Part shown: one piece after another, positions 1 to 34,424 of the stretch
Layout: each line of letters starts with the position of its first letter
How positions within the stretch are numbered: position 1 is the stretch's first letter
From: Candidatus Multivoradales bacterium
GTDB lineage: Bacteria; Acidobacteriota; Thermoanaerobaculia; Multivoradales; Multivoraceae
Direction: 5' to 3'
Assembly (NCBI GenBank): GCA_965223325.1
Contig: CBDCWI010000002.1
Location: 2,336,001 to 2,400,000, forward strand
DNA length: 64,000 nt
Made by a program: the position numbers and the translations under genes
Notes under the pieces: model-generated
What the model saw: the letters and a program-made list of their open reading frames with translations, nothing else
What the model was told of the DNA's origin: nothing
Databases searched by the model: none

Positions 1-2
1 AA

Positions 3-92
3 CGCAACTACGTACAACGCCTGATCGAGATTGGCGAGCACGACGCCGAAGCAAGAATGACCGACCTGGTACGCCTGGTAGAAAGCGGGTGA
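3..92 (+). CDS. 3' end of a gene entering from the left, possibly a patatin-like phospholipase
   Basis: Open frame RNYVQRLIEIGEHDAEARMTDLVRLVESG* ends at TGA 90-92; resembles the C-terminal 'Y..RLIE.G..DA' of bacterial patatins. Only 29 aa visible. Confidence 0.4.
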   Translation, partial: RNYVQRLIEIGEHDAEARMTDLVRLVESG

Positions 93-117
93 GACCTCCG
101 TCCTTGCCGCTTTCTGA

Positions 118-330
118 TTGGTTGGTGCTCGTGGCTGTCGAGATGGGAGGACGGGGCCGCGCGTGGCGCCGGTGGGCGACGACCCAGGGCACGGCGGCGC
201 TTCTTCGGACTGCCATGGGTAGCCTCGCCTGCGCTCGCCGGCCGCAGGTCGGTCGCCGCCAGCGAAGGTGTTGCTAGTTCGGCCGGCGAGAGCACCCTGG
301 ATCGTCGCCCACGCGGCCCCCCGCGCTCTC
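118..330. repeat. Structured intergenic element, family A, copy 1 (candidate ncRNA or non-autonomous element)
   Basis: Nested stems gtgggcgacgacccaggg/ccctggatcgtcgcccac and ctcgccggccg/cggccggcgag; shares conserved blocks with the inverted copies at 32288-32907. Confidence 0.6.
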
Positions 331-579
331 GCGGTACTACGGCGGCAGAAAAGCGGCACCTAGACGGACGGGAGTCTCTGTTAGGACGGGGGATCGCGCA
401 GGCCGCTCCGACCGGGCGGCCTAACACGACAACTGACAGAGAATCGAGAGGCGCGCGACCCCAAGGGGCGCTTTCCAGGTTTCGTTGTAGACCAGACGGA
501 AACTAGGAACAGCTCGGTGATGCCACTCCGGCGACACCTCCCCAAAGCACCGACGAGCACCTGGAGAAGCTTCTGCGCC

Positions 580-975
580 AGCCGCCGGAGGCGCGGGCAT
601 GAAGGCGCGATGTGCGAAGCACGAGCGTGCACCCCCCCTCACCCCCACTTGAACGCGAGGTGTACTCCGAAAGGGCGGAGGGTGGAGCGAGGGACTGCCC
701 GTGTAGCAATCAGGCGGGAAGGGCGCAGGATCCAGCTTAGGTGTGCACGGGGTGCGTGGCGGATCAGGGCGGGCAAGTGTTTGAGCGGAGCATCGACACA
801 GAAACCAGGCCGCAGGTGACGCAACGGGCCCAACAAAACCACCACCACACGCACAGCGAAGCGCAGCGAGTTTTGCCCGCCCCCGCCACGTGCCTCGGGC
901 ACACCTTAGCTGGATGCGCCGGCCGTCGCGGAGCGGGCAGGCCCTCGCTCCACCCTCCGCCCGGCGACCCGGCAC
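580..975. repeat. ~400-bp long-hairpin repeat, family B, copy 1
   Basis: Near-identical to 1002-1395; internal inverted arms 673-962 (gggcggagggtggagcgaggg ... ccctcgctccaccctccgccc). Confidence 0.85.
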
Positions 976-1001
976 AACCCGCGAACAACACTCTCGACGC
1001 T

Positions 1002-1395
1002 AGCCGGAGAAGGCGCGCGCATGAAGGCGCGATGTGCGAAGCACGAGCGTGCACCCCCCCTCACCCCCACTTGAACGCGAGGTGTACTCCGAAAGGGCGG
1101 AGGGTGGAGCGAGGGACTGCCCGCGTAGCAATCAGGCGGGAAAGGCGCAGGATCCAGCTTAGGTGTGCACGGGGTGCGTGGCGGATCAGGGCGGGCAAGT
1201 GTTTGAGCGGAGCATCGACACAGAAACCAGGCCGCAGGTGACGCAACGGGCCCAACAAGTACCACCACACGCCCAGCGAAGCGCAGCGAGTTTTGCCCGC
1301 CCCCGCCACGTGCCTCGGGCACACCTTAGCTGGATGCGCCGGCCGTCGCGGAGCGGGCAGGCCCTCGCTCCACCCTCCGCCCGGCGACCCGGCAC
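1002..1395. repeat. ~400-bp long-hairpin repeat, family B, copy 2
   Basis: Direct repeat of 580-975 with a period of about 422 bp; inverted arms 1095-1382. Confidence 0.85.
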
Positions 1396-1479
1396 ATCCT
1401 CACAATCCCGAACCGATCATCCCAACCACGACCAACCACAAACGCAGCAGCCAAGACGCCGGCCTACAAGACGCCGAAA

Positions 1480-2559
<1,080 letters not shown>

Positions 2560-13729: not shown

Positions 13730-15639
13730 ATCGCGGTAGGAGCGCCGGTTGCCCGGCGCCCCCCGCACAGATCCCAGCGTGCACTGCTAATGCACTGGGC
13801 TCCTGCCTCAGGTATTGACGACAAGTCGCTCATCAGGCCAGGGATGTTGGACTCGGGCTTTGGGTAGGTAGTGGGCCACCAGGGCCCACATCCGTTTCCA
13901 GGACGTGCGGTCTTTGTCACTGCGTCGGCGCAGAGCGCGCATCCAGTGCCGAATGACCTCCTGTCGAAAGGCGTTCAACGCCGCTGAGTTGCCGGGTACG
14001 CCGTAGTAGGCATTGAAGCCTCGCACCACGGATCCCAGCCAGAGACCTTGCTCTGGTAGCGGCGAGTGTCGGTGTCCCAGAAGGGCCGTACCGACAGCCT
14101 TCAGTGTCCTGCGGATTCGGTGGCGGCTCGTGATGCGCTTCAGCAAGAACCTCCCTCGACTAGACTGCGCACAGCAGTGCGTAAAGCCTAGAAACTCGAA
14201 GGTCTCCGGCCGCCCGAGACCTCGCGCGCGTCGGTTGTAGGCCGCAAAGCGGCCAAACTCCAGCAGGCGCGTCTTCTCGGGTTGGATCTCCAACGAGAAG
14301 TCACGGAGTCGCAGGTTCAGTTCCTCGAGGAATCGTTCTGCCTCCTCCTGCCTCTCAAATCCAACGATGAAGTCATCCGCGTAGCGCACGAAGATCATGT
14401 CCCCAAGCGCGTTGCGTTTCCTCCACTGCTGGACCCAGAGATCGAGCACGTAGTGCAGGTACACGTTCCCGAGGAGAGGCGAAATCGTCGCCCCCTGAGG
14501 AGTCCCCCGCGTGCTCGCGTGCCACTTACCGTCTTCCATCACTCCGGACCTCAGCCATTTCTGGATGAGGCGAAGGATCCTACGGTCTCCGATACGGTGC
14601 TCGAGAAACTTCACCAGCCACTCGTGGTCCAGGGCATCGAAGAACCCACGAATGTCTGCGTCGAGCACCCAGTTCACCTTCCGCTTTGTGATTCCAACGA
14701 ATAGCGCATCCAAAGCATCGTGCTGGCTGCGGCCTCGCCTGAATCCGTATGAGTACCCGAGAAAGTCTTCCTCGTAGATCGCATCCAACACCGAGACGAC
14801 GGCGCGCTGAAGGATCTTGTCCTCCAACGTGGCGATGCCAAGCGGTCGGAACCGCCCATCCGATTTCTCGATGTAGACGCGACGAGTCGCACTCGCCCGG
14901 TAGCTCCCACGGTGGACACGAGAGTGCAGGTCCTCGAGATTGCTCAGCAAAGATTCTGCGTACTCGCTCCATGACACTCCGTCCACTCCTGCCGCTGCGT
15001 CTCGGTGCAACACGTCAAATGCGCTCCGGAGTCGCTCGACCGTGATGTGGTGAAGAAGCGCTGTGAACTTCACTTCCTTGCCCCTGCGGGCGGCTTCTCG
15101 TACACGGCCCAGCGCATTGCTCGCACTCTCCATCCGGCTCTGTGTCCGGGGTGCGTTTTGCTTGCCCGTGTTCCCCTTGGCCAGGCCCCTTCCCTCCACC
15201 GCCTCCGCCGCTGGTCTCCCACCGTTGTTCGACGACTTCGCAGGTACTACGGGCCTGTCTGACTTCCGCCATCCGTGCGTCATCGGCTTACGGCCTCTAG
15301 CCTTCCCGATGCGGACCAGATACCCAACTGGCCAGATCGCGGATCTCCCGGTTCTCGCGCATGGAGATTCCACACATGCACAGGGTCTACGACCGCGGGG
15401 AGTCGCCGCAGAGCTCGCGATAGCGCGCTACGGAGTCTCGCCTTCCGCTTCGCTTGACAGCGTCGGCACTCCCAAATTCTTATTTCGCGGCTCAATACCC
15501 GGCCTGTGTGTGCCCCTGTCAACGCTTCACCGCACCCTCGCGGGAGCCGGCGCATGACTCGGGGACCCTCTGGGTCGCTACCCCTTCGAGGGTGGGACTC
15601 TCTCATTCCTTTCTCCATGCCGGTTTATCCCGGCGTATC
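13730..15639 (-). mobile_element. Full-length group II intron (~1910 nt)
   Basis: D5 gAGCccagtgcattagcagtgcacgctgggatc; D6 ending cctaccgcgAT at 13730; 5' end gatacgccgggataaaccggc; EBS1 CAAGCG (15451-15456) complementary to exon end CGCTTG. Confidence 0.9.
13808..15283 (-). CDS. ltrA: Group II intron reverse transcriptase/maturase without endonuclease domain
   Basis: RPLGI, YGFR, DADIRGFFD, GTPQG, RYADD, FEFLGF; ends after domain X with no HNH. Confidence 0.95.
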   Translation of the reverse strand: MTHGWRKSDRPVVPAKSSNNGGRPAAEAVEGRGLAKGNTGKQNAPRTQSRMESASNALGRVREAARRGKEVKFTALLHHITVERLRSAFDVLHRDAAAGVDGVSWSEYAESLLSNLEDLHSRVHRGSYRASATRRVYIEKSDGRFRPLGIATLEDKILQRAVVSVLDAIYEEDFLGYSYGFRRGRSQHDALDALFVGITKRKVNWVLDADIRGFFDALDHEWLVKFLEHRIGDRRILRLIQKWLRSGVMEDGKWHASTRGTPQGATISPLLGNVYLHYVLDLWVQQWRKRNALGDMIFVRYADDFIVGFERQEEAERFLEELNLRLRDFSLEIQPEKTRLLEFGRFAAYNRRARGLGRPETFEFLGFTHCCAQSSRGRFLLKRITSRHRIRRTLKAVGTALLGHRHSPLPEQGLWLGSVVRGFNAYYGVPGNSAALNAFRQEVIRHWMRALRRRSDKDRTSWKRMWALVAHYLPKARVQHPWPDERLVVNT

Positions 15640-17606: not shown

Positions 17607-17795
17607 ACTCCGTGCGCCCCACAGAGTTCGTCCGCGAACGCTCCGGGCGCACTCCGTGCGCCCCACAGAGTTCGTCCGCGAACGCTCCGGGCGCACTCGG
17701 TGCGCCCCACAGAGTTCGTCCGCGAACGCTCCGGGCGCACTCGGTGCGCCCACAGAGTTCCTCTGCGAACGCTCCGAGCGCACTCCGTGCCCTAC
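17607..17795. repeat. 44-bp tandem repeat (~4.2 copies) of GTAG/GTGG-type REP-like hairpins
   Basis: Unit actccgtgcgccccacagagttcgtccgcgaacgctccgggcgc; palindrome gggcgcac-nnn-gtgcgccc preceded by GTRG on the minus strand. Confidence 0.85.
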
Positions 17796-18591: not shown

Positions 18592-19987
18592 GCGCACGGC
18601 GATGCCGCGCACGGTAGGGGGTAAGTTTTGACGGCAACGCCGTACTGGGCGGCGCGCCGAGTTCCGGAGCACTCCGTCGGCCTCCTTTACGACCTCAGGG
18701 GGTTGTCGGGAGGGCTGAAACCTCGCTTTCACCACCCCTCCAACCGCGGCACTCCACCCGAAAGACGCAGCTCCGCCATTGCACCGGTAGGCGCGTTCCC
18801 CTCGAGCCGTCAACCACCTCTTCGTCGGCAGCCCGGACCGTCAGGGACCGTCGCGAGCACCCGGCCCAGGCACTTCCAGGGCCACAAACGGCAACGGGCT
18901 TGGGAAAGTCCCTGGCGGAAACTTCGCCTCCAGGTCACCACTCCACAGAAGATCGCGCGCCGTGCGATGCGCCCGCCTCACCGCATCGAATACCGAAAGT
19001 AGCCGATTACGCTCGTGCGAGTCCGACGCGATGACCCGGGGCCTCGGCCCCCAATCGAGCCTCCGCGGGCGGCGCATCGGACTCACTTGCGTCGTTTTGT
19101 AGGCACCGCGAGGCCTCGTGCCCTTTCGCTTGTGGCGCGCCCGGGTCTCGTCCTCGATCTCAACAATCATGCCGCGGGCCCAGTCGAAGTACTCCTCGTC
19201 AGGGAGGTCCTCGAAGCACGGAAGCTTCGATAACACGACCGTCTCGTGGCTCGAGAAGTCCTTATTCGCTCAAACGACGACCGGCTTTCGAAAAACGGGC
19301 ACGACGAAGCGCTGAACGATCGACCCAGGTGCCCTCGAGCTCGAAGGTCCCTGACCAGAGTGCCTCCCCTACCGACACGCCTGGCCACTTGCGAGGTGAA
19401 GACACCAACCCCGCCTTGCAACCCTGGGCAAGGATGTAGCGGAAACGACGGCAGAGGTCCTTCTTTGCGTGACCGGGAAACGACGTCTTGACGGCCCCTC
19501 CCACTTCGGCCCCTTGAACCCCCGCAGGATCCGCAGTTCCACACTCGTCTGGTGCTGAATGCGCCGCATGAAATCGGCCAGCTGCTGGGCGTCGCGAGCG
19601 CCCAGCAGAAGGTGAGCATGGTTGACCTGGTAGTCCAGGGCGTGGATCCGGATTTCGGTCTTTCGCTGCGCGCGGCCGATGATCCCGACCAGCAGATCGC
19701 GTAGGCGTGACGATGGCGCCAACAGGAAGAACCCGTTGACGATACGCCTTCGACGACTCCCCAACCACTTCCGTCGGTGGGGACATACCTCAGTTGATGG
19801 GCCATGACTCTTCGCACGGAACCATCGATGCCTTGCAGGGAGCCGAATCCTATCGGATGACCCTCGCCATCGACCAACTGTCATTTGTGAATCGGGCTAC
19901 ACGTCAGGTCGGTGGCGAGTCCCGGTCCTGCGCCACGACTTCGACTCAAAACTTACCCCCGACTGGGCGCGGCATCGCCGCGCGATC
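18592..19987. mobile_element. Y1/HUH transposase element bounded by ~42-bp hairpin-containing inverted ends
   Basis: Left 18592-18635 gcacggcgatgccgcgcacggtagggggtaagttttga; right 19946-19987 read inward gatcgcgcggcgatgccgcgcccagtcgggggtaagttttga. Confidence 0.7.
18841..19805 (-). pseudogene. Frameshifted Y1 (IS200/RAYT-like) transposase
   Basis: Pieces in different frames: MAHQLRY; FLL.P...GIIGRAQ...NHAHLL (HUH)...FM; RYILAQG.KAGLV..P..WPG; C-terminal FPPGTFP. Confidence 0.8.
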
Positions 19988-20143: not shown

Positions 20144-20719
20144 CTACTTGCCCACGGTTTCCAATCTGGCTGTGACCCTCTCCAGAATTCTCTCGTCGGA
20201 GACCTTCGAGCGGGATCCCGTACCCAATATCTCAGCCCACTCGAAGCCGACCGCCCGGGCTAGACCTTCCAGCGCGGTCTCGGCAATGACGCTGCCCTCG
20301 GGCGCGCTCACATAGGTCGAGTGCCCTTCGAGTTCGCGCAGCATCACGATGTCATTATTCAATCGGAGATGAGCACCAGCCACTGAGATAGCCGAGAGCC
20401 GGCAGTCATCTTCGGCATCCCACTCTCGCCCGCCAAGGTCCGCCATGATCTCGTCGCGATAGTCGGCTGACAGGCCCCAGTCGTTACAAAGCACAGATAG
20501 TGCTAGCGCGTGCGTCATCGGATCCGTTCGACAGCCGAGAAATCGCACCACCAGATCGCGATAGCGGATGGCCTGAGCTGCACCAAGGATATTGAGCAGT
20601 GTGTAGGCGTCGCCCTCGCCTCGCACGAGTCGTGCCGCGATCTCGTCAAGCTCATGCGCCGAGATGCGCCCGTCTTGGGCTCGCCGCAATGCGCCCGAAA
20701 GGTCCTCCGCGTTCATCAC
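20144..20719 (-). CDS. Putative immunity protein for the Ntox28-like toxin (helical, HEAT-like)
   Basis: Starts 3 nt after the toxin stop; all-alpha pattern DAYTLLNILG...LALSVLC..WGL. Confidence 0.7.
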   Translation of the reverse strand: MMNAEDLSGALRRAQDGRISAHELDEIAARLVRGEGDAYTLLNILGAAQAIRYRDLVVRFLGCRTDPMTHALALSVLCNDWGLSADYRDEIMADLGGREWDAEDDCRLSAISVAGAHLRLNNDIVMLRELEGHSTYVSAPEGSVIAETALEGLARAVGFEWAEILGTGSRSKVSDERILERVTARLETVGK

Positions 20720-20722
20720 TTG

Positions 20723-23134
20723 CTACTTGGGAACGAACTTCCTGGACTGATCTAGGAGCTTGCTGGCATCAGCAAGTTCTCTGGTTAGGGCTTCACGCTC
20801 CGCTCGTGGAAGATCGACTCCGCTCAGCTTGGTGTTGATCGCGGAGATTCGGTTCTGAAGCCCCCGCTGGGCGTTGCGAACCTTCTGGACGTGATCGAAC
20901 GGCGTCCCGTCTGGCTTCACGGAGACGACTTCGCCCGCTAGCTCTCTTCGAGCTGCGTCAAGGGTCTCTGGAGTTAGATGCTCTTTGAACCTATCAGTCT
21001 TTCGAACTGCGGTCCCGACGACCCGATTCCCGTCGAGTGCCTTGTCCGCAGCCTGAAGACCGTCGATGAACCGACCGCCAACCGACGGCACGAACGGTAG
21101 CGCCGCTCCGGCGACATCGAGTACGGCCCCGAGGATGTTGCCGAACGATGGATCGTTCCGTGCCTGGTTGATCGAGATCCCCGCCATCGCGACGTCAAAG
21201 ACGATCTCGGCGGCCTCTCCGTCGGGATCGACGTTGATGATCGGATTGTTCCGAACGTAGGCATAGCGGTTCCACGACTGCGGGAGCATCGGGTCGTAGC
21301 TCTCGCCGCTCGGGTCGGTGGAGGTGAATCGCGAGTACGTGGGGTAGTAGTAGCGAGCATGCATGTAGTCGAGGTCATCCTCAGCCGAGCCGGTGTGGTT
21401 GAAGTCACGCTCGTGGCCGGTGAATTTCCACTGCAGGCCGTCCTGGTCTGACGTCGTCGCTTCGCGTCCGTAGGGGTAGTAGACGTCGTAGGCGACTTCG
21501 TTTCCGCCTGCATCAGTGGTCTGGCGCACGGTGCCGAGATGGTCGGTGTGGAGGTAACGGCGGCCTTCTGAGGTTTCGGCAGCCAGGACCCTGCCGAGGC
21601 CGCGGATGGTGTCTTCGTAGGTGAAGACGCCGTTGTCGGTGGTGTACTCGCGTAGCACCTGGCCGCCCAGGTCGCGGATCGCCCACTGGCTGCGTGCGGC
21701 CAGGTCGTACTCCCAGATGCGCTCGCCCGAAGCGTCGTAGATGTAGACCGCTGAGGTCTGTTGGCTCGGTGGCGAGGTCGACCCGTCGTCTTGCACGCAC
21801 GGGTTGTCGGGGAAGACCGAGCTGGCGCAGAGGACCTCGCCGAAGGCGCCGTAGCGGAAGATGCGACCGTCGGCCTCGACGAGGCTTCCGTCCTGCTGGT
21901 AACTGGTGCCGGCGACGGTCAGTCGGTTGGTGTGTTGACTGGTTGGGGTCGCACGGCCTCCGCCACCTGCCGTCCTCTGGAGGTTGCCGAAGACGTCGTA
22001 GGTAAACACCTGGCGGCGCTCGATGCCGGCGCCGTTGCGGGCGAGGTGCACTCCCGCCTCGGCGAGGCGGTTGACGGCGTCGTAGCGGTACCAGGAACCG
22101 CCGATCGAGAGGATGTTGCCTGAGCCGTCGTAGGTGTAGGTGCCGGTGGACCAGTTGCGGTTGCTCCCTACACCGCTTGTCGAGATGCGCCGAGGGCGTC
22201 TCTTGCTGTAGGGGTCGAGGGTGTGGGTCTCGGTGACGCCGTTTCTAAACGCGATGCTTACGAGGGCCTGGTTCCGGTGGTAGCCGACGGAGTCGAGGTA
22301 GCCGGGCACCTTCCGCAGGAAGCCGCGGCCGTACTCGAAGCTCACGCTCCGTGACGGAGCGGGATCGTTGGTGCAGGGTGTCGCGTAGCCCCCTCCTTCA
22401 CACTTCGGGTAGTGGATTCTGGTGGTCGCTCCCAGGTCGTCGTACTCGAAGCCCTGGCTGAAGGCGTTCGACAGGTTGCCGTTGACGTAGACCCCGGTTC
22501 TTCGAGACGACGCGAGGCCGCCCCTGCCCCTGTACTCGAGCTCCTGCTCGACGCGCACGACGTGGTCTTCGCGGTCGGGCCGGTAGAGCGTCAGGTGGTT
22601 GTGGCGGACCAGGCGGGTGACTTTGCCGCCGCTGCGGTTGCTTCCCGAAGAGGCGTTCGACCACTGCCACTCTTTGAGTGGCAGGAAGGCAGCCTCCTCG
22701 TTCTGGCAGTCACCCGCGAAGCTGAAGTCGATGCGCACCGCCCGGCCCGCCCCGTCATAGCGGTGGCAGAGCTTGCGCCAGGCGTCGCGCACGAAGCCGA
22801 CGTTGCCGAGGGCGTCGTAGTCCGAGTACTGGATCTCTTTGGGTGCATGGCCCGCCGTGCGCTCGGGATGGTCTTCTCCGACCAGGAAGCCACGCAGGTC
22901 GTAGGAGAAGGTGCGCTTCTGGCTCACTCCGCCGTGGCTGGTGGTTACGGTGCGCAACCGATCGGCATGGTCGTAGCCGTAGGTTGTGTGGACGCGCGCC
23001 TTCGCGGCACCGGCTGAGTGCTCCTCCACCTTGTAGAGGCGACCGAACGCGTCGTAATGGAGGCGCTTGGGGATGCTTTCGAGCGTGACGTCGCTGCCGC
23101 TTCCTCCCCGGCGCACCACGGGCTGGCTGAACAC
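20723..23134 (-). CDS. Orphan (5'-truncated) Rhs with C-terminal Ntox28-like putative tRNase
   Basis: Core duplicates the main Rhs; PQSWNRYAYVRNNP..VDPDG; tip KEHL...AARREL.G......DG..FDH...V. Start is arbitrary, so it may not be translated. Confidence 0.8.
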   Translation of the reverse strand: MFSQPVVRRGGSGSDVTLESIPKRLHYDAFGRLYKVEEHSAGAAKARVHTTYGYDHADRLRTVTTSHGGVSQKRTFSYDLRGFLVGEDHPERTAGHAPKEIQYSDYDALGNVGFVRDAWRKLCHRYDGAGRAVRIDFSFAGDCQNEEAAFLPLKEWQWSNASSGSNRSGGKVTRLVRHNHLTLYRPDREDHVVRVEQELEYRGRGGLASSRRTGVYVNGNLSNAFSQGFEYDDLGATTRIHYPKCEGGGYATPCTNDPAPSRSVSFEYGRGFLRKVPGYLDSVGYHRNQALVSIAFRNGVTETHTLDPYSKRRPRRISTSGVGSNRNWSTGTYTYDGSGNILSIGGSWYRYDAVNRLAEAGVHLARNGAGIERRQVFTYDVFGNLQRTAGGGGRATPTSQHTNRLTVAGTSYQQDGSLVEADGRIFRYGAFGEVLCASSVFPDNPCVQDDGSTSPPSQQTSAVYIYDASGERIWEYDLAARSQWAIRDLGGQVLREYTTDNGVFTYEDTIRGLGRVLAAETSEGRRYLHTDHLGTVRQTTDAGGNEVAYDVYYPYGREATTSDQDGLQWKFTGHERDFNHTGSAEDDLDYMHARYYYPTYSRFTSTDPSGESYDPMLPQSWNRYAYVRNNPIINVDPDGEAAEIVFDVAMAGISINQARNDPSFGNILGAVLDVAGAALPFVPSVGGRFIDGLQAADKALDGNRVVGTAVRKTDRFKEHLTPETLDAARRELAGEVVSVKPDGTPFDHVQKVRNAQRGLQNRISAINTKLSGVDLPRAEREALTRELADASKLLDQSRKFVPK
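21347..23107. repeat. ~1.76-kb direct repeat of Rhs core (partner 24766-26526)
   Basis: Near-identical DNA and protein (GGSGSDVTLESIPKRL...DYMHARYY) at an offset of about 3419 bp. Confidence 0.9.
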
Positions 23135-32091: not shown

Positions 32092-32120
32092 TTGACCCCG
32101 GAACAGCCACGGGCTATGTT
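32092..32120 (+). promoter_or_regulatory. Probable sigma-70 promoter for tRNA-Pro
   Basis: TTGACC-17 nt-TATGTT, 27 nt upstream of the tRNA. Confidence 0.6.
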
Positions 32121-32147
32121 TCGCCATTCGCGATCCGCAGGAGAATT

Positions 32148-32225
<78 letters not shown>

Positions 32226-32287
32226 CAAACCCGTTGGCATCTCCCCAGGGCCCAAGAAGCCCTCCGCAAGTGACCTTCGGGCACAGA

Positions 32288-32587
32288 CCAATCCCGAAAA
32301 GATCGCCCCGACGAGCACCGCCCTACCCCCTCACCAAACGTCGACGGTCAACCCAGTCCCAAGCTGAGGAGCGGCGAGCGCAGGGCCGAGGGTGCTCTTT
32401 CCGGCCGCACTAGAAGGCCCACGGCAGTCAACAAAAGACAAGCGGCCGGAACGCTATGCCTCTATCGAGGCCAGCGGGCGGCGCCACCCAGCCGCAGGAA
32501 CAAGAAGCGACGCCGTGCCCGGAGGCCGGGCGCCCGCCGTTCACCAGCGGCGCCGTCCCCAACCTCAACAGTCCAGCAAGGCCACCA
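32288..32587. repeat. Structured intergenic element, family A, copy 2
   Basis: Direct repeat with 32609-32907; stem ttccggccgc/gcggccggaa; inverted, diverged homolog of 118-330. Confidence 0.85.
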
Positions 32588-32608
32588 ACCAACGCACGCA
32601 CTGACACT

Positions 32609-32907
32609 CCAATCCCGAAAAGATCGCAACGACAAGCACCGCCCCACCCCCTCACCAAACGTCGACGGTCAACCGGTCCCAAGCTGGGGAGCGGCGGGCG
32701 CAGGGCCGAGGGTGCTCTTTCCGGCCGCACTAGAAGAACCAAGGCAGTCAAACAACGATAGGCGGCCGGAAAGCTATGCCTCTATCGAGGCCAGCGGGCG
32801 GCGCCAGCCAGCCGCAGGAACAAGAAGCGACGCCGTGCCCGGAGGCCAGGCGCCCGTCGTTCACCAGCGGCGCCGTCCCCAACCTCAACAGTCCAGCAAG
32901 GCCACCA
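32609..32907. repeat. Structured intergenic element, family A, copy 3
   Basis: Tandem copy of 32288-32587, period about 321 bp. Confidence 0.85.
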
Positions 32908-32929
32908 CCAAGCCGCGAAGAAAGGAAAG

Positions 32930-33805
32930 CTACTCCGCTTCCGACTCGGGCGCTTCCGACTCGGACGCTTCCGAATCGGACACCTCCGAAGACTCCGAAG
33001 AAGCACCATCACCACAGCCATCAAGCTCATCCCCAGCCTTGACCTCAACCAAAACGACCGTCACGTTATCCAACCCTCCGCGGTCGTTCGCGGCATCAAT
33101 CAACTCCTGGCAGATCTGATCAAGCGGCAAGTCCTTCTTCATGTAGCGCTCGATCTCATCGTCTTCGAGCATCGTCGTCAGACCATCGCTACACACCAGG
33201 TACACATCACCGGCCCGCAGCTCGAGCTCGGCAAGGTCGACCAGGACCTCCTTCTCGCTGCCCAGCGCCCGCGTCACGACGTTCTTGAGCGGGTGTACGC
33301 GAGCCTGCTCAGCGGACAGGTAACCCGCCACCACCTGCTCGTTGACCCAGGTGTGGTCCTGGGTGAGCAACTCAAACGCACCGTCGCGGAGGCGGTAGGC
33401 ACGGCTGTCGCCAACATGCGCTAGCGCCGCGATGTCACCGTCGACATAGAGACCCACCACCGTCGTCCCCATGCCGTGCAGCTCGTGATCCTGGATGATC
33501 GCCTGCAGGACCTGCTGATGGGCAGTGCGCACCGCGTTACGCAGGCGGTTCGAGTGCTTCTGAAACTCCGGTTCGCTGCGGTACTTGTCGTATCGCGGGT
33601 CGTCTGCCGTCTCGCTGATGAAGTCGCGAATCGCGTCGACGGCGATCCGCGAAGCGACCTCACCATGGCTGTGACCGCCCATGCCGTCAGCGACGATAAA
33701 GAGCTGCGCCTCCGAGTCGATCTCGAAGCAGTCTTCATTGTGCTTGCGAGTCATTCCCGTATGGGTCAGACCCGAAGACTCTACGATGATCCCATTCTTC
33801 GCCAC
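32930..33805 (-). CDS. PP2C/Stp1-family Ser/Thr phosphatase
   Basis: RKHNED, VADGMGGH, GMGTT, HVGDSRAY, CSDGL, GGLDNVT. Confidence 0.93.
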   Translation of the reverse strand: MAKNGIIVESSGLTHTGMTRKHNEDCFEIDSEAQLFIVADGMGGHSHGEVASRIAVDAIRDFISETADDPRYDKYRSEPEFQKHSNRLRNAVRTAHQQVLQAIIQDHELHGMGTTVVGLYVDGDIAALAHVGDSRAYRLRDGAFELLTQDHTWVNEQVVAGYLSAEQARVHPLKNVVTRALGSEKEVLVDLAELELRAGDVYLVCSDGLTTMLEDDEIERYMKKDLPLDQICQELIDAANDRGGLDNVTVVLVEVKAGDELDGCGDGASSESSEVSDSEASESEAPESEAE

Positions 33806-33809
33806 TTCT

Positions 33810-34424
33810 CTACCTATCCTTCTCGAGCTGCTGGAGCGCTTCTTCGACCTTCGGGTCTGGATCGCCCCACTGCAAGGCAGTCCGATAGTAGCGCTCCGCA
33901 CGAATCGACATACCGGCGGCTGCGAACATCCGGCCGGCGAGCTTGTTGTAATCGGGGTTCATCGTCTCGATCTCGCAGGCTTCGGCGATCGCCTTCAGGC
34001 CGCGGCTGCGCCAACGAGGATTCTGTGAACAGGTCAAGGCGAGGTAGTACCAGGCCTGCGCGTTCTTGGCGTCCTGTTGGGTTGCGCGGTCGAAGTTCTC
34101 AGCCGCCTGGACGAACTGGCGCTGCTTGTACGCCTTGACGCCACGCGACAGGTAGACCTTGGCGAGCTCCTCGGGCACTGGGCCCTGCGTCGGCCCGGAG
34201 TCGGGTGACTGCAGCTCCATATCGTGCAGGCGCCGGCGCTCGGGATTGAAGAGCACATTGAAGGCCTCGGTGATCCCCTGGAAGACTTCCTCGGCCTCGG
34301 CCTTGTCTTCGCCCTGGAAAAGATCGGGGTGGCGCTCGCGCGCCAACTGCAGAAAACGCGCGCGAATGTCTGCTCGTGAGGCGTTGCGATCGACCTCGAG
34401 TACCGAGTAGTAGTCACGCGGCAT
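33810..34424 (-). CDS. DnaJ-domain plus TPR protein
   Basis: DYYSVL...HPD...EAFNVL J domain followed by TPR helices. Confidence 0.85.
   Translation of the reverse strand: MPRDYYSVLEVDRNASRADIRARFLQLARERHPDLFQGEDKAEAEEVFQGITEAFNVLFNPERRRLHDMELQSPDSGPTQGPVPEELAKVYLSRGVKAYKQRQFVQAAENFDRATQQDAKNAQAWYYLALTCSQNPRWRSRGLKAIAEACEIETMNPDYNKLAGRMFAAAGMSIRAERYYRTALQWGDPDPKVEEALQQLEKDR

Follow-up and report, generated by a model that had tools for sequence, protein, structure and literature searches.

A family of branched palindromic intergenic repeats with a conserved three-way junction at gene ends in an acidobacterial order

Two sites in a 64,000-nt stretch of an acidobacterial genome, one at 86-392 on the plus strand and the other a pair of tandem units at 32288-32911 on the minus strand, are divergent members of one dispersed repeat family. 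The whole stretch, called the window here, corresponds to C2:2336001-2400000 of a 6.69-Mb, 64% GC assembly made up of two contigs, C1 and C2. The family is an uncatalogued, non-coding group of branched palindromic intergenic repeats, in which a three-armed hairpin of ~300 bases is positioned at gene ends and present in dozens of copies. Its appearance is that of a selfish or domesticated DNA repeat of a well-known type, not of a dedicated RNA gene, and we consider it somewhat probable that it belongs, as a structured and non-autonomous DNA repeat, to the REP/BIME/MITE kind, proliferating behind stop codons and constrained in its fold rather than in its sequence.

The plus-strand member, copy A, had been given an extent of 118-330 in an earlier note on this DNA and is in fact larger, at ~86-392. 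The left arm of its imperfect closing inverted repeat (86-112, +) is conserved in the 12 A-type copies of the genome, pairs with 349-385 in folds of 78-392, and overlaps the TGA stop (89-91) of the upstream plus-strand gene, whose end was called from codon-position GC. It is followed by a T/G-rich tract (113-154, +) of TTGGTTG-type, microsatellite-like units, seen in alignments, which is short in this copy and ranges from ~10 to ~120 nt among copies; 5' of the core, GC and TA skew are both positive in the copies of this genome. The core (155-337, +) is a three-way junction of 184 model positions, matched by the covariance model R1 at 167 bits and having an RNAalifold consensus of 56 pairs, with stems P1a (159-171/314-326), P1b (172-189/295-312), P2 (193-201/221-229) and P3 (230-244/280-294), all on the plus strand. 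Its junction motifs, GGGCACGGCG... and ...GAGAGCACCC, are invariant. The right arm of the closing repeat and its G-rich tail (349-392, +), conserved in A-type copies, pair with the left arm, and the plus strand of window 78-392 folded as DNA reaches -88.7 kcal/mol (z -3.06), with the arms closing the element. The modules of an A-type copy follow the order left extension, left arm, T/G-rich tract, core of ~184 nt, variable spacer, right arm and G-rich tail. The left extension, of ~60 nt, occurs in 7 of the 12 copies and begins 0-25 nt past the upstream stop codon, the closing inverted repeats are imperfect and ~25-35 nt long, and the arm-to-arm length is 279-423 nt.

The tandem region at 32288-32911 (-) consists of two units of a second subtype, B, with cores at 32363-32548 and 32683-32868, delimited by Tandem Repeats Finder, model R1, alignments and folds. 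Tandem Repeats Finder resolves it into a 320-nt unit present 2.0 times (93% matches), and each unit contains an extra small hairpin between P2 and P3. When window 100-345 (+) was aligned by MAFFT with the reverse complements of 32270-32600 and 32590-32915, the mean column identity was 77%, which bears out the earlier claim that 118-330 (+) runs collinearly with the reverse-complemented tandem repeats behind tRNA-Pro, and all the shared blocks then named are present in this alignment. The stems said to differ in sequence and still pair were also recovered, with both P1b and P3 of copy A replaced by other complementary sequences in the tandem copies. A single-sequence nhmmer query with copy A returned 21 matches in the genome, the tandem region among them (E 4.6e-4), and in a genome-wide search, a covariance model trained solely on the 12 A-type copies gave one tandem unit 48.4 bits (E 5.6e-6) and the other 30.4 bits (E 0.017); the similarity between copy A and the tandem units is therefore beyond chance.

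The window holds other repeats and frames as well. A 15-nt tandem repeat (32936-32989, 3.6 copies) lies in the 3' end of the minus-strand gene at 32930-33958, where it encodes an acidic, Ser/Asp/Glu-rich C-terminal tail, and a 44-nt unit is repeated in tandem at 17607-17790 (4.2 copies, 95% matches). At 20144-23134 (-), an 803-aa frame resembling, by eye, an RHS/YD-repeat protein with a variable C-terminal end is followed by a 191-aa frame in a layout like that of a polymorphic toxin and its immunity gene.

Three copies had been counted previously; iterated nhmmer found 27 matches at ~20 loci of this genome, a count that was stable from iteration 2 to iteration 5. These matches comprise 12 full A-type copies, mutually 70-82% alike, three divergent subtypes (B, C and D) and fragments. 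By nhmmer, subtype B includes the window units at 32288-32911, C2:2430330 and C1:1590640, subtype C is the tandem pair C1:1198904/1199177, and subtype D is the single copy C2:1420344. Partial tandem duplications are frequent in the family, as are solo arms, fragments, mosaic modules and tracts of variable length, and the right arm is found in a four-fold tandem array at C1:857 kb. Copies are built up in "nests" with other repeat families between convergent genes.

A second, unrelated repeat family occupies window 590-1480, where a very long nested hairpin arises from two tandem units, each of ~420 nt and 97.7% alike. These units abut the stop of the minus-strand gene at 1480 and, like copy A, have a T/G-rich tract on the gene-proximal side. 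The second family has ~12 full copies genome-wide, at 70-83% identity, together with a 38-50-nt module in tandem arrays, and a fragment of it again adjoins an A-type copy at C2:1345.8 kb.

Folding revealed the same overall shape in all four subtypes, A to D, in which P1a and P1b together make an outer stem of ~31 bp around a three-way junction from which P2 and P3 extend. Almost no variation is seen in P2 and in the strands of the junction, and the sequence of P1 is entirely different in A, B, C and D, yet paired in each. Among the 12 A-type cores, 94.5% of the pairing cells pair, against 87.6% in shuffled alignments; both partners have changed in 16 pairs, where shuffles give 8.0; and covariation scores 0.216, against 0.090, with none of 500 shuffles as high on any of these measures. 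This alignment came from MAFFT on sequence only. Sliding the partners by 1-3 columns lowered the score to 0.008-0.052, a control that is flattered because the structure was taken from the same alignment. In a set of 33 copies drawn from six genomes, 87.6% of the cells are paired, the corresponding values being 61.0% for shuffles and 37-48% for slid partners, both-side changes occur in 50 of the 56 pairs, and the covariation score is 0.54, against 0.14 in shuffles and 0.06-0.09 with slid partners; again, none of 500 shuffles equals the observed pairing, both-side changes or score. The 33-copy alignment was fitted to the model and is thus biased towards the model's own structure. Since pairing and both-side changes exceed the shuffles in the 12-copy and the 33-copy alignments alike, the structure is kept by Watson-Crick changes. 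The conserved junctions and covarying helices pointed out from the window alone accordingly hold, and they extend to other genera.

Such invariant junctions and strongly covarying stems across six genomes also speak for the main rival reading, rather unlikely in our judgement, that the family is a functional structured RNA at gene 3' ends whose copies spread secondarily. In one form, it would be part of the 3' UTR of the upstream gene, as a putative stabiliser or terminator; in another, it would be a transcript of the complementary strand, serving as a putative Rho-loading insulator that keeps convergent transcription out of the adjacent gene. Folded as RNA, the minus strand of window 78-392 reaches -155.9 kcal/mol, well below shuffles (z -4.99), in agreement with this reading, and the minimum free energies of the two strands are alike in most subtypes. 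The nature of the base pairs also bears on the question, as a transcribed strand would be marked by an excess of G·U over A·C. Among the consensus-pair cells of 19 copies are 832 with Watson-Crick pairs, 47 with G·U, 45 with A·C and 120 with other pairs. In 53 distinct copies from several genomes, which remained after 13 of 68 rows were dropped (12 reverse-strand duplicates and one truncated match) and identical rows were merged, they comprise 2328 Watson-Crick, 83 G·U, 109 A·C and 180 others. No G·U excess was thus present in either set, let alone one of the size usual in RNA helices, and because G·U pairs are no commoner than A·C, the helices give no pointer to one transcribed strand. The slight surplus of A·C in the larger set (109 vs 83) would read as G·U on the complementary strand.

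The unpaired parts, in turn, are strand-asymmetric. The flanks are G- and T-rich on the strand of copy A, GC skew is positive downstream in 43 of 51 copies and upstream in 36 of 51, and T exceeds A in the core loops (mean TA skew 0.16), such that the complementary strand has A-rich loops and C-rich, G-poor tails. This asymmetry counts against the DNA-repeat reading, as it could reflect an RNA made from the complementary strand, with its C/A-rich flanks. Against an RNA stand the signals in window 1-1600, where a scan limited to the sigma-70 consensus found 0 promoter-like sites, the 3 terminator-like sites (1.5 expected) all lie outside the element, and no T-run follows the main stems as read from the window sequence.

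Rfam's structured non-coding RNA families include the Acido-1 and Acido-Lenti-1 motifs and self-cleaving ribozymes. The element resembles such RNAs in its multi-stem fold, covariation and conserved junction nucleotides, and differs from them in having neither a family match nor a wobble excess and in being multi-copy, rich in fragments and patchily distributed. At gathering scores, the window has just two kinds of Rfam 15 match, to tRNA and to a group II intron domain, and no family at the element. A more permissive comparison covered both strands of 1-520 and 32100-33000 at E<=10 and again matched no family, the ribozymes considered in the earlier note included, with no row overlapping copy A and only chance-level rows at the tandem copies. 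The intron match, at 15383-15601 (-), covers group II intron domains D1-D4 (RF02005, 180.6 bits, E 9e-53).

The position of the element relative to genes is a further constraint on its interpretation. Both window loci lie between convergent 3' ends, as first described: copy A between a plus-strand gene ending at 91 and a minus-strand gene ending at 1480, and the tandem copies between tRNA-Pro(CGG) at 32148-32224 (+) and a minus-strand gene ending at 32930. Only 1 of the 12 A-type copies lies in a spacer between divergent genes. The left end, including the 60-nt extension, is within ~70 nt of the stop of a co-oriented gene in 9 of the 12, a count in which the C1:620346 copy is entered from the gene-context survey, and the right arm is never <95 nt from a gene. 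Of the 24 copies elsewhere that have a gene called on their 5' side, 21 face its 3' end, an outcome that follows automatically in convergent spacers. In tandem gene contexts, co-oriented and anti-oriented copies number 5 vs 3 in other genomes and about 4 vs 3 in this one, so that an orientation relative to transcription is not established, a point against an RNA. What stands on polarity is the asymmetry of the two element ends. That the left end abuts a co-oriented stop in 9 of the 12 A-type copies and the right end in none favours an RNA, and this polarity is left unexplained by symmetric DNA insertion.

An empty orthologous site was found at the copy A locus. Both flanking genes are adjacent as orthologues in the same-genus genome G001 (66% and 79% identity), where a stop-to-stop spacer of ~25 nt contains a small GC hairpin; in our genome, the spacer measures ~1390 nt and is made up of the family element and two copies of the second repeat family. 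The upstream gene ends ~11 codons earlier here than in G001, its TGA lying inside the left arm. This is a single empty-site comparison, as the flanks of two other loci map to different G001 contigs and synteny is broken there. No direct repeat is evident next to the arms as a target-site duplication, judged from one empty site with flanks of 66-79% identity and from element ends that are not defined to the base.

A comparison of 9 x 8 sampled loci of G123 and G028, congeners that belong to another genus, showed the element to be common to both and the flanks not. At one locus, L081, the element lies behind the same gene in both genomes, and the G028 contig ends within the element. Here identity is 80.7% in the core, much as in the neighbouring coding DNA (80.5%), and 63.7% in the non-core extension, and judged by these identities, selection or gene conversion would fit this single case better than neutral decay. 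A core conserved like coding DNA in an orthologous copy is again in line with a functional RNA and counts against the DNA-repeat reading.

The distribution of the family among genomes was followed with R1 (184 positions, 56 pairs, built from the 12 A-type cores). On its own genome, R1 found again the copies already known, among them those of subtypes B, C and D, on which it was not trained, and no additional copy. A search of relatives, as the earlier note had suggested, disclosed multi-copy relatives in other genomes of the same order: at E<=0.01, R1 matched 9 of 150 other relatives, all of the same order, 4 of them among 56 genomes of the same family and the rest in other families. These matches have the same junction and P2 motifs and number at least 35 in G123, 11 in G028, 6 in G010, 6 in G133 and 1 in G015. 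In the same-genus genome G001, neither R1 nor BLAST with the element gave a match. Among 150 genomes sampled evenly from the phylum and searched with R1 under stricter filters, the sole match was G028, which is inside the order; as no match fell outside the order, this search also serves as a control of specificity. BLAST with the element gave no convincing match among 40 relatives, picking up stretches of just 27-56 nt in 6 of them, and a G123 element produced 59-66 matches in its congener G028. A strict three-block pattern had 0 matches in one genome per species from 185,579 species, a set from which our own genome is possibly left out, and the plasmid and phage collections had no match to the element.

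Copy number is therefore patchy and lineage-specific, the family having multiplied within few genera of one acidobacterial order. The variable copy number (0 in G001, 27 here and at least 35 in another genus), the empty site, the mosaic modules and the lack of a G·U excess favour a proliferating DNA repeat, and the failure to find the family in a genome of the same genus and the common fragments and partial tandem copies weigh against a dedicated RNA.

A search of the genome for a mobilising partner found none, which counts against the structured DNA repeat that we favour. For each arm motif, 13 of 16 matches lie near a family match, and a 14th right-arm match continues the tandem array at C1:857 kb; no arm-motif match in this genome borders a transposase-sized unit, and no longer element has the same arms. 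This result bears on a reading that we consider very unlikely, in which the element is a classical MITE, an internally deleted IS derivative whose terminal inverted repeats are bound by a DDE transposase and whose inner stems are incidental. The imperfect ~25-35 nt inverted repeats that close the A-type element would suit it, and a size of ~280-420 nt and an intergenic position are typical of MITEs. However, apart from the missing longer relative, similarity goes on beyond the arms, so that the arms are subterminal; subtypes B, C and D and the copies of other genera retain the core and not the A-type arms; no target duplication was seen at ends that are not base-defined; and compensatory changes in nested inner stems are unexpected for mere transposase-binding sites. 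Two 439-aa frames overlapping copies were considered as transposases and rejected, being unrelated frames, one of them a TetR-type gene.

A 1.7-kb segment triplicated in G123 was likewise rejected as a transposase carrier, since it holds a TPR gene and an element copy. The three occurrences (L063, L066 and L070, on G123 contigs C13, C14 and C16) are 99% identical, each with a TPR-repeat gene and one element copy, and lie at contig ends; the segment is a segmental duplication carrying the element along.

The HUH/Y1 (RAYT/TIRYT-like) genes of the genome are the sole named candidates for the mobilising enzyme, and we hold them to be such with low confidence. The Y1_Tnp domain (PF01797) has 29 matches here (27 at E<=0.001); no other of the 151 genomes searched has as many, and G001 has 6. 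A specific version of our preferred explanation, overlapping with it, would have the element move as single-stranded DNA in the manner of a REPIN or PATE, through an HUH/Y1 transposase (RAYT, TIRYT or IS200/IS605 TnpA) encoded elsewhere in the genome. Pairing that is Watson-Crick-only and hairpin-centred, with an invariant junction, would agree with it, and acidobacterial TIRYTs with repeated TIR families are described in the accessible text of a published survey (PMC3733652). Against it, no copy lies beside any of the 29 Y1_Tnp matches, and no Y1 gene is flanked by the element; the element library had no blastn-short match at E<=1e-3 to 16 Y1 loci with 2.5-kb flanks; and no inverted repeats flank the best RAYT-like gene (C1:1305963-1306784) out to 1.5 kb. 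Many Y1 matches belong to repeated units of 1.37 kb or are clustered at the two contig ends, and the ends of the 1.37-kb unit have no similarity to the element. Only 4 of the 12 A-type copies have GTAG immediately before the left arm on its 5' side, and that of the window copy belongs to codons present in G001 too. Nor do Y1 counts follow element counts, G010 having 1 Y1 for 6 elements and G123 having 4 for 35. Finally, the sense of replication, taken from cumulative GC skew, divides the loci 12 vs 9 by hand count, and this lack of strand bias argues against an IS608-like mechanism. The HUH/Y1 version is thus a named but unsupported candidate, which we think unlikely. Of the earlier proposal of a functional RNA or a single-stranded DNA mobile element, the conserved junctions and covarying helices stand, and the specific IS200/IS605-like mechanism is not supported, given the unbiased replication strands, the dissimilar ends of the Y1 units and the lack of a copy beside a transposase gene.

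A degraded, frame-shifted example of the 1.37-kb unit, encoding a Y1/HUH transposase-like protein, lies in the window at ~19170-19890 (-), with a PF01797 match at 19531-19698. The clusters of Y1 matches, at C2:4455-4487 kb and C1:2126-2144 kb, are near both contig ends. Cumulative GC skew falls along all of C1 and on C2 only from 0.35 to 3.5 Mb. Joining C1 in reverse to C2 would yield one balanced replicon of ~6.7 Mb, and the assembly may thus be one chromosome broken at Y1-gene clusters and not two replicons.

Several known systems share features with the family. Neisseria Correia elements and enterobacterial ERIC/RU elements are a few hundred bases long, with terminal inverted repeats and long hairpins, and occupy transcribed intergenic regions near gene ends. 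Our element is similar to them in length, inverted repeats, long-hairpin fold and gene-end position, and it differs in that its branched core is conserved across genera, its outer arms are subtype-specific and no parent IS was found. The RU elements RU-1 to RU-3 figure in the accessible part of PMC2759123. REPs lie mostly between convergent or unidirectional ORFs, according to the portion available of PMC3733652, and the element likewise lies behind genes, with 1 of 12 A-type copies in a divergent spacer. As far as REP, REPIN and BIME sequences are described in the accessible parts of PMC3733652, PMC3116915 and PMC3337134, the element resembles them in being non-coding, GC-rich, hairpin-forming and multi-copy, in its clusters and mosaics, in its persistence within lineages and in its complementary changes. 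In contrast to their hairpin of 20-40 nt or doublet of ~100 nt, the element is 280-420 nt long with a 184-nt three-way junction; it has no conserved GTAG or CGTC tag and no RAYT flanked by element copies (no REPtron), and its copy number is in the tens, not hundreds.

In Acidobacteria, a distinct group of TIR-flanked Y1 transposases (TIRYT) has been described, some of whose TIRs form repeated families and some of which are self-complementary, according to the part available of Di Nocera et al. 2013 (PMC3733652). These TIR families share with the element the phylum, a Y1-rich genome and repeated inverted-repeat families; unlike them, the element has no Y1 gene flanked by its arms, a distinction drawn on the description in the portion at hand (PMC3733652), and the element may yet prove to be one of the published TIR families. 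From the IS200/IS605-derived PATE, it is set apart by ends unlike those of Y1 ISs and by an orientation without replication bias. In the portions of the literature available to us on acidobacterial intergenic palindromes, REPIN/RAYT hairpins and three-way-junction repeats, no description of the family was found.

On the reading we prefer, of a proliferating structured DNA repeat, the unit would spread as DNA. A folded single-stranded form would probably be recognised, through the invariant junction, by a trans-acting, structure-specific enzyme, and the unit would land a few bases behind stop codons, at small terminator-type hairpins. Copies would afterwards decay, partially duplicate in tandem and gather into "nests" together with repeats of other families. 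What the data show is that the copies form one family, share a covarying structure, are patchily distributed, sit at gene 3' ends and are missing from one orthologous site; that the unit moves at all, passes through a single-stranded intermediate and is served by an enzyme is what we infer.

A bolder proposal, which we rate as distinctly improbable, is that the invariant junction, kept across genera while every stem changes, is an undescribed working part. It would belong either to a mobile element that is recognised by structure and targets gene ends or to a domesticated complementary-strand RNA that shields genes from convergent antisense transcription, and function rather than chance would then account for the stop-codon polarity and for the orthologous copy whose conservation matches that of coding DNA.

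If the family is what it seems, it would add a large branched member to the REP/BIME/MITE world, from a poorly studied soil phylum. With its 184 positions and 56 pairs, R1 is a calibrated structural model able to pick up relatives that BLAST misses. For annotation, the long "empty" convergent spacers of these genomes can be read as repeat nests, at which draft contigs break. The textbook picture of selfish palindromic repeats does not account for the stop-codon polarity, the strand asymmetry of the flanks or the single orthologous copy that is as conserved as coding DNA. The family thereby offers a test case for whether such elements insulate or terminate transcription, and for what recognises a folded junction and not a sequence.
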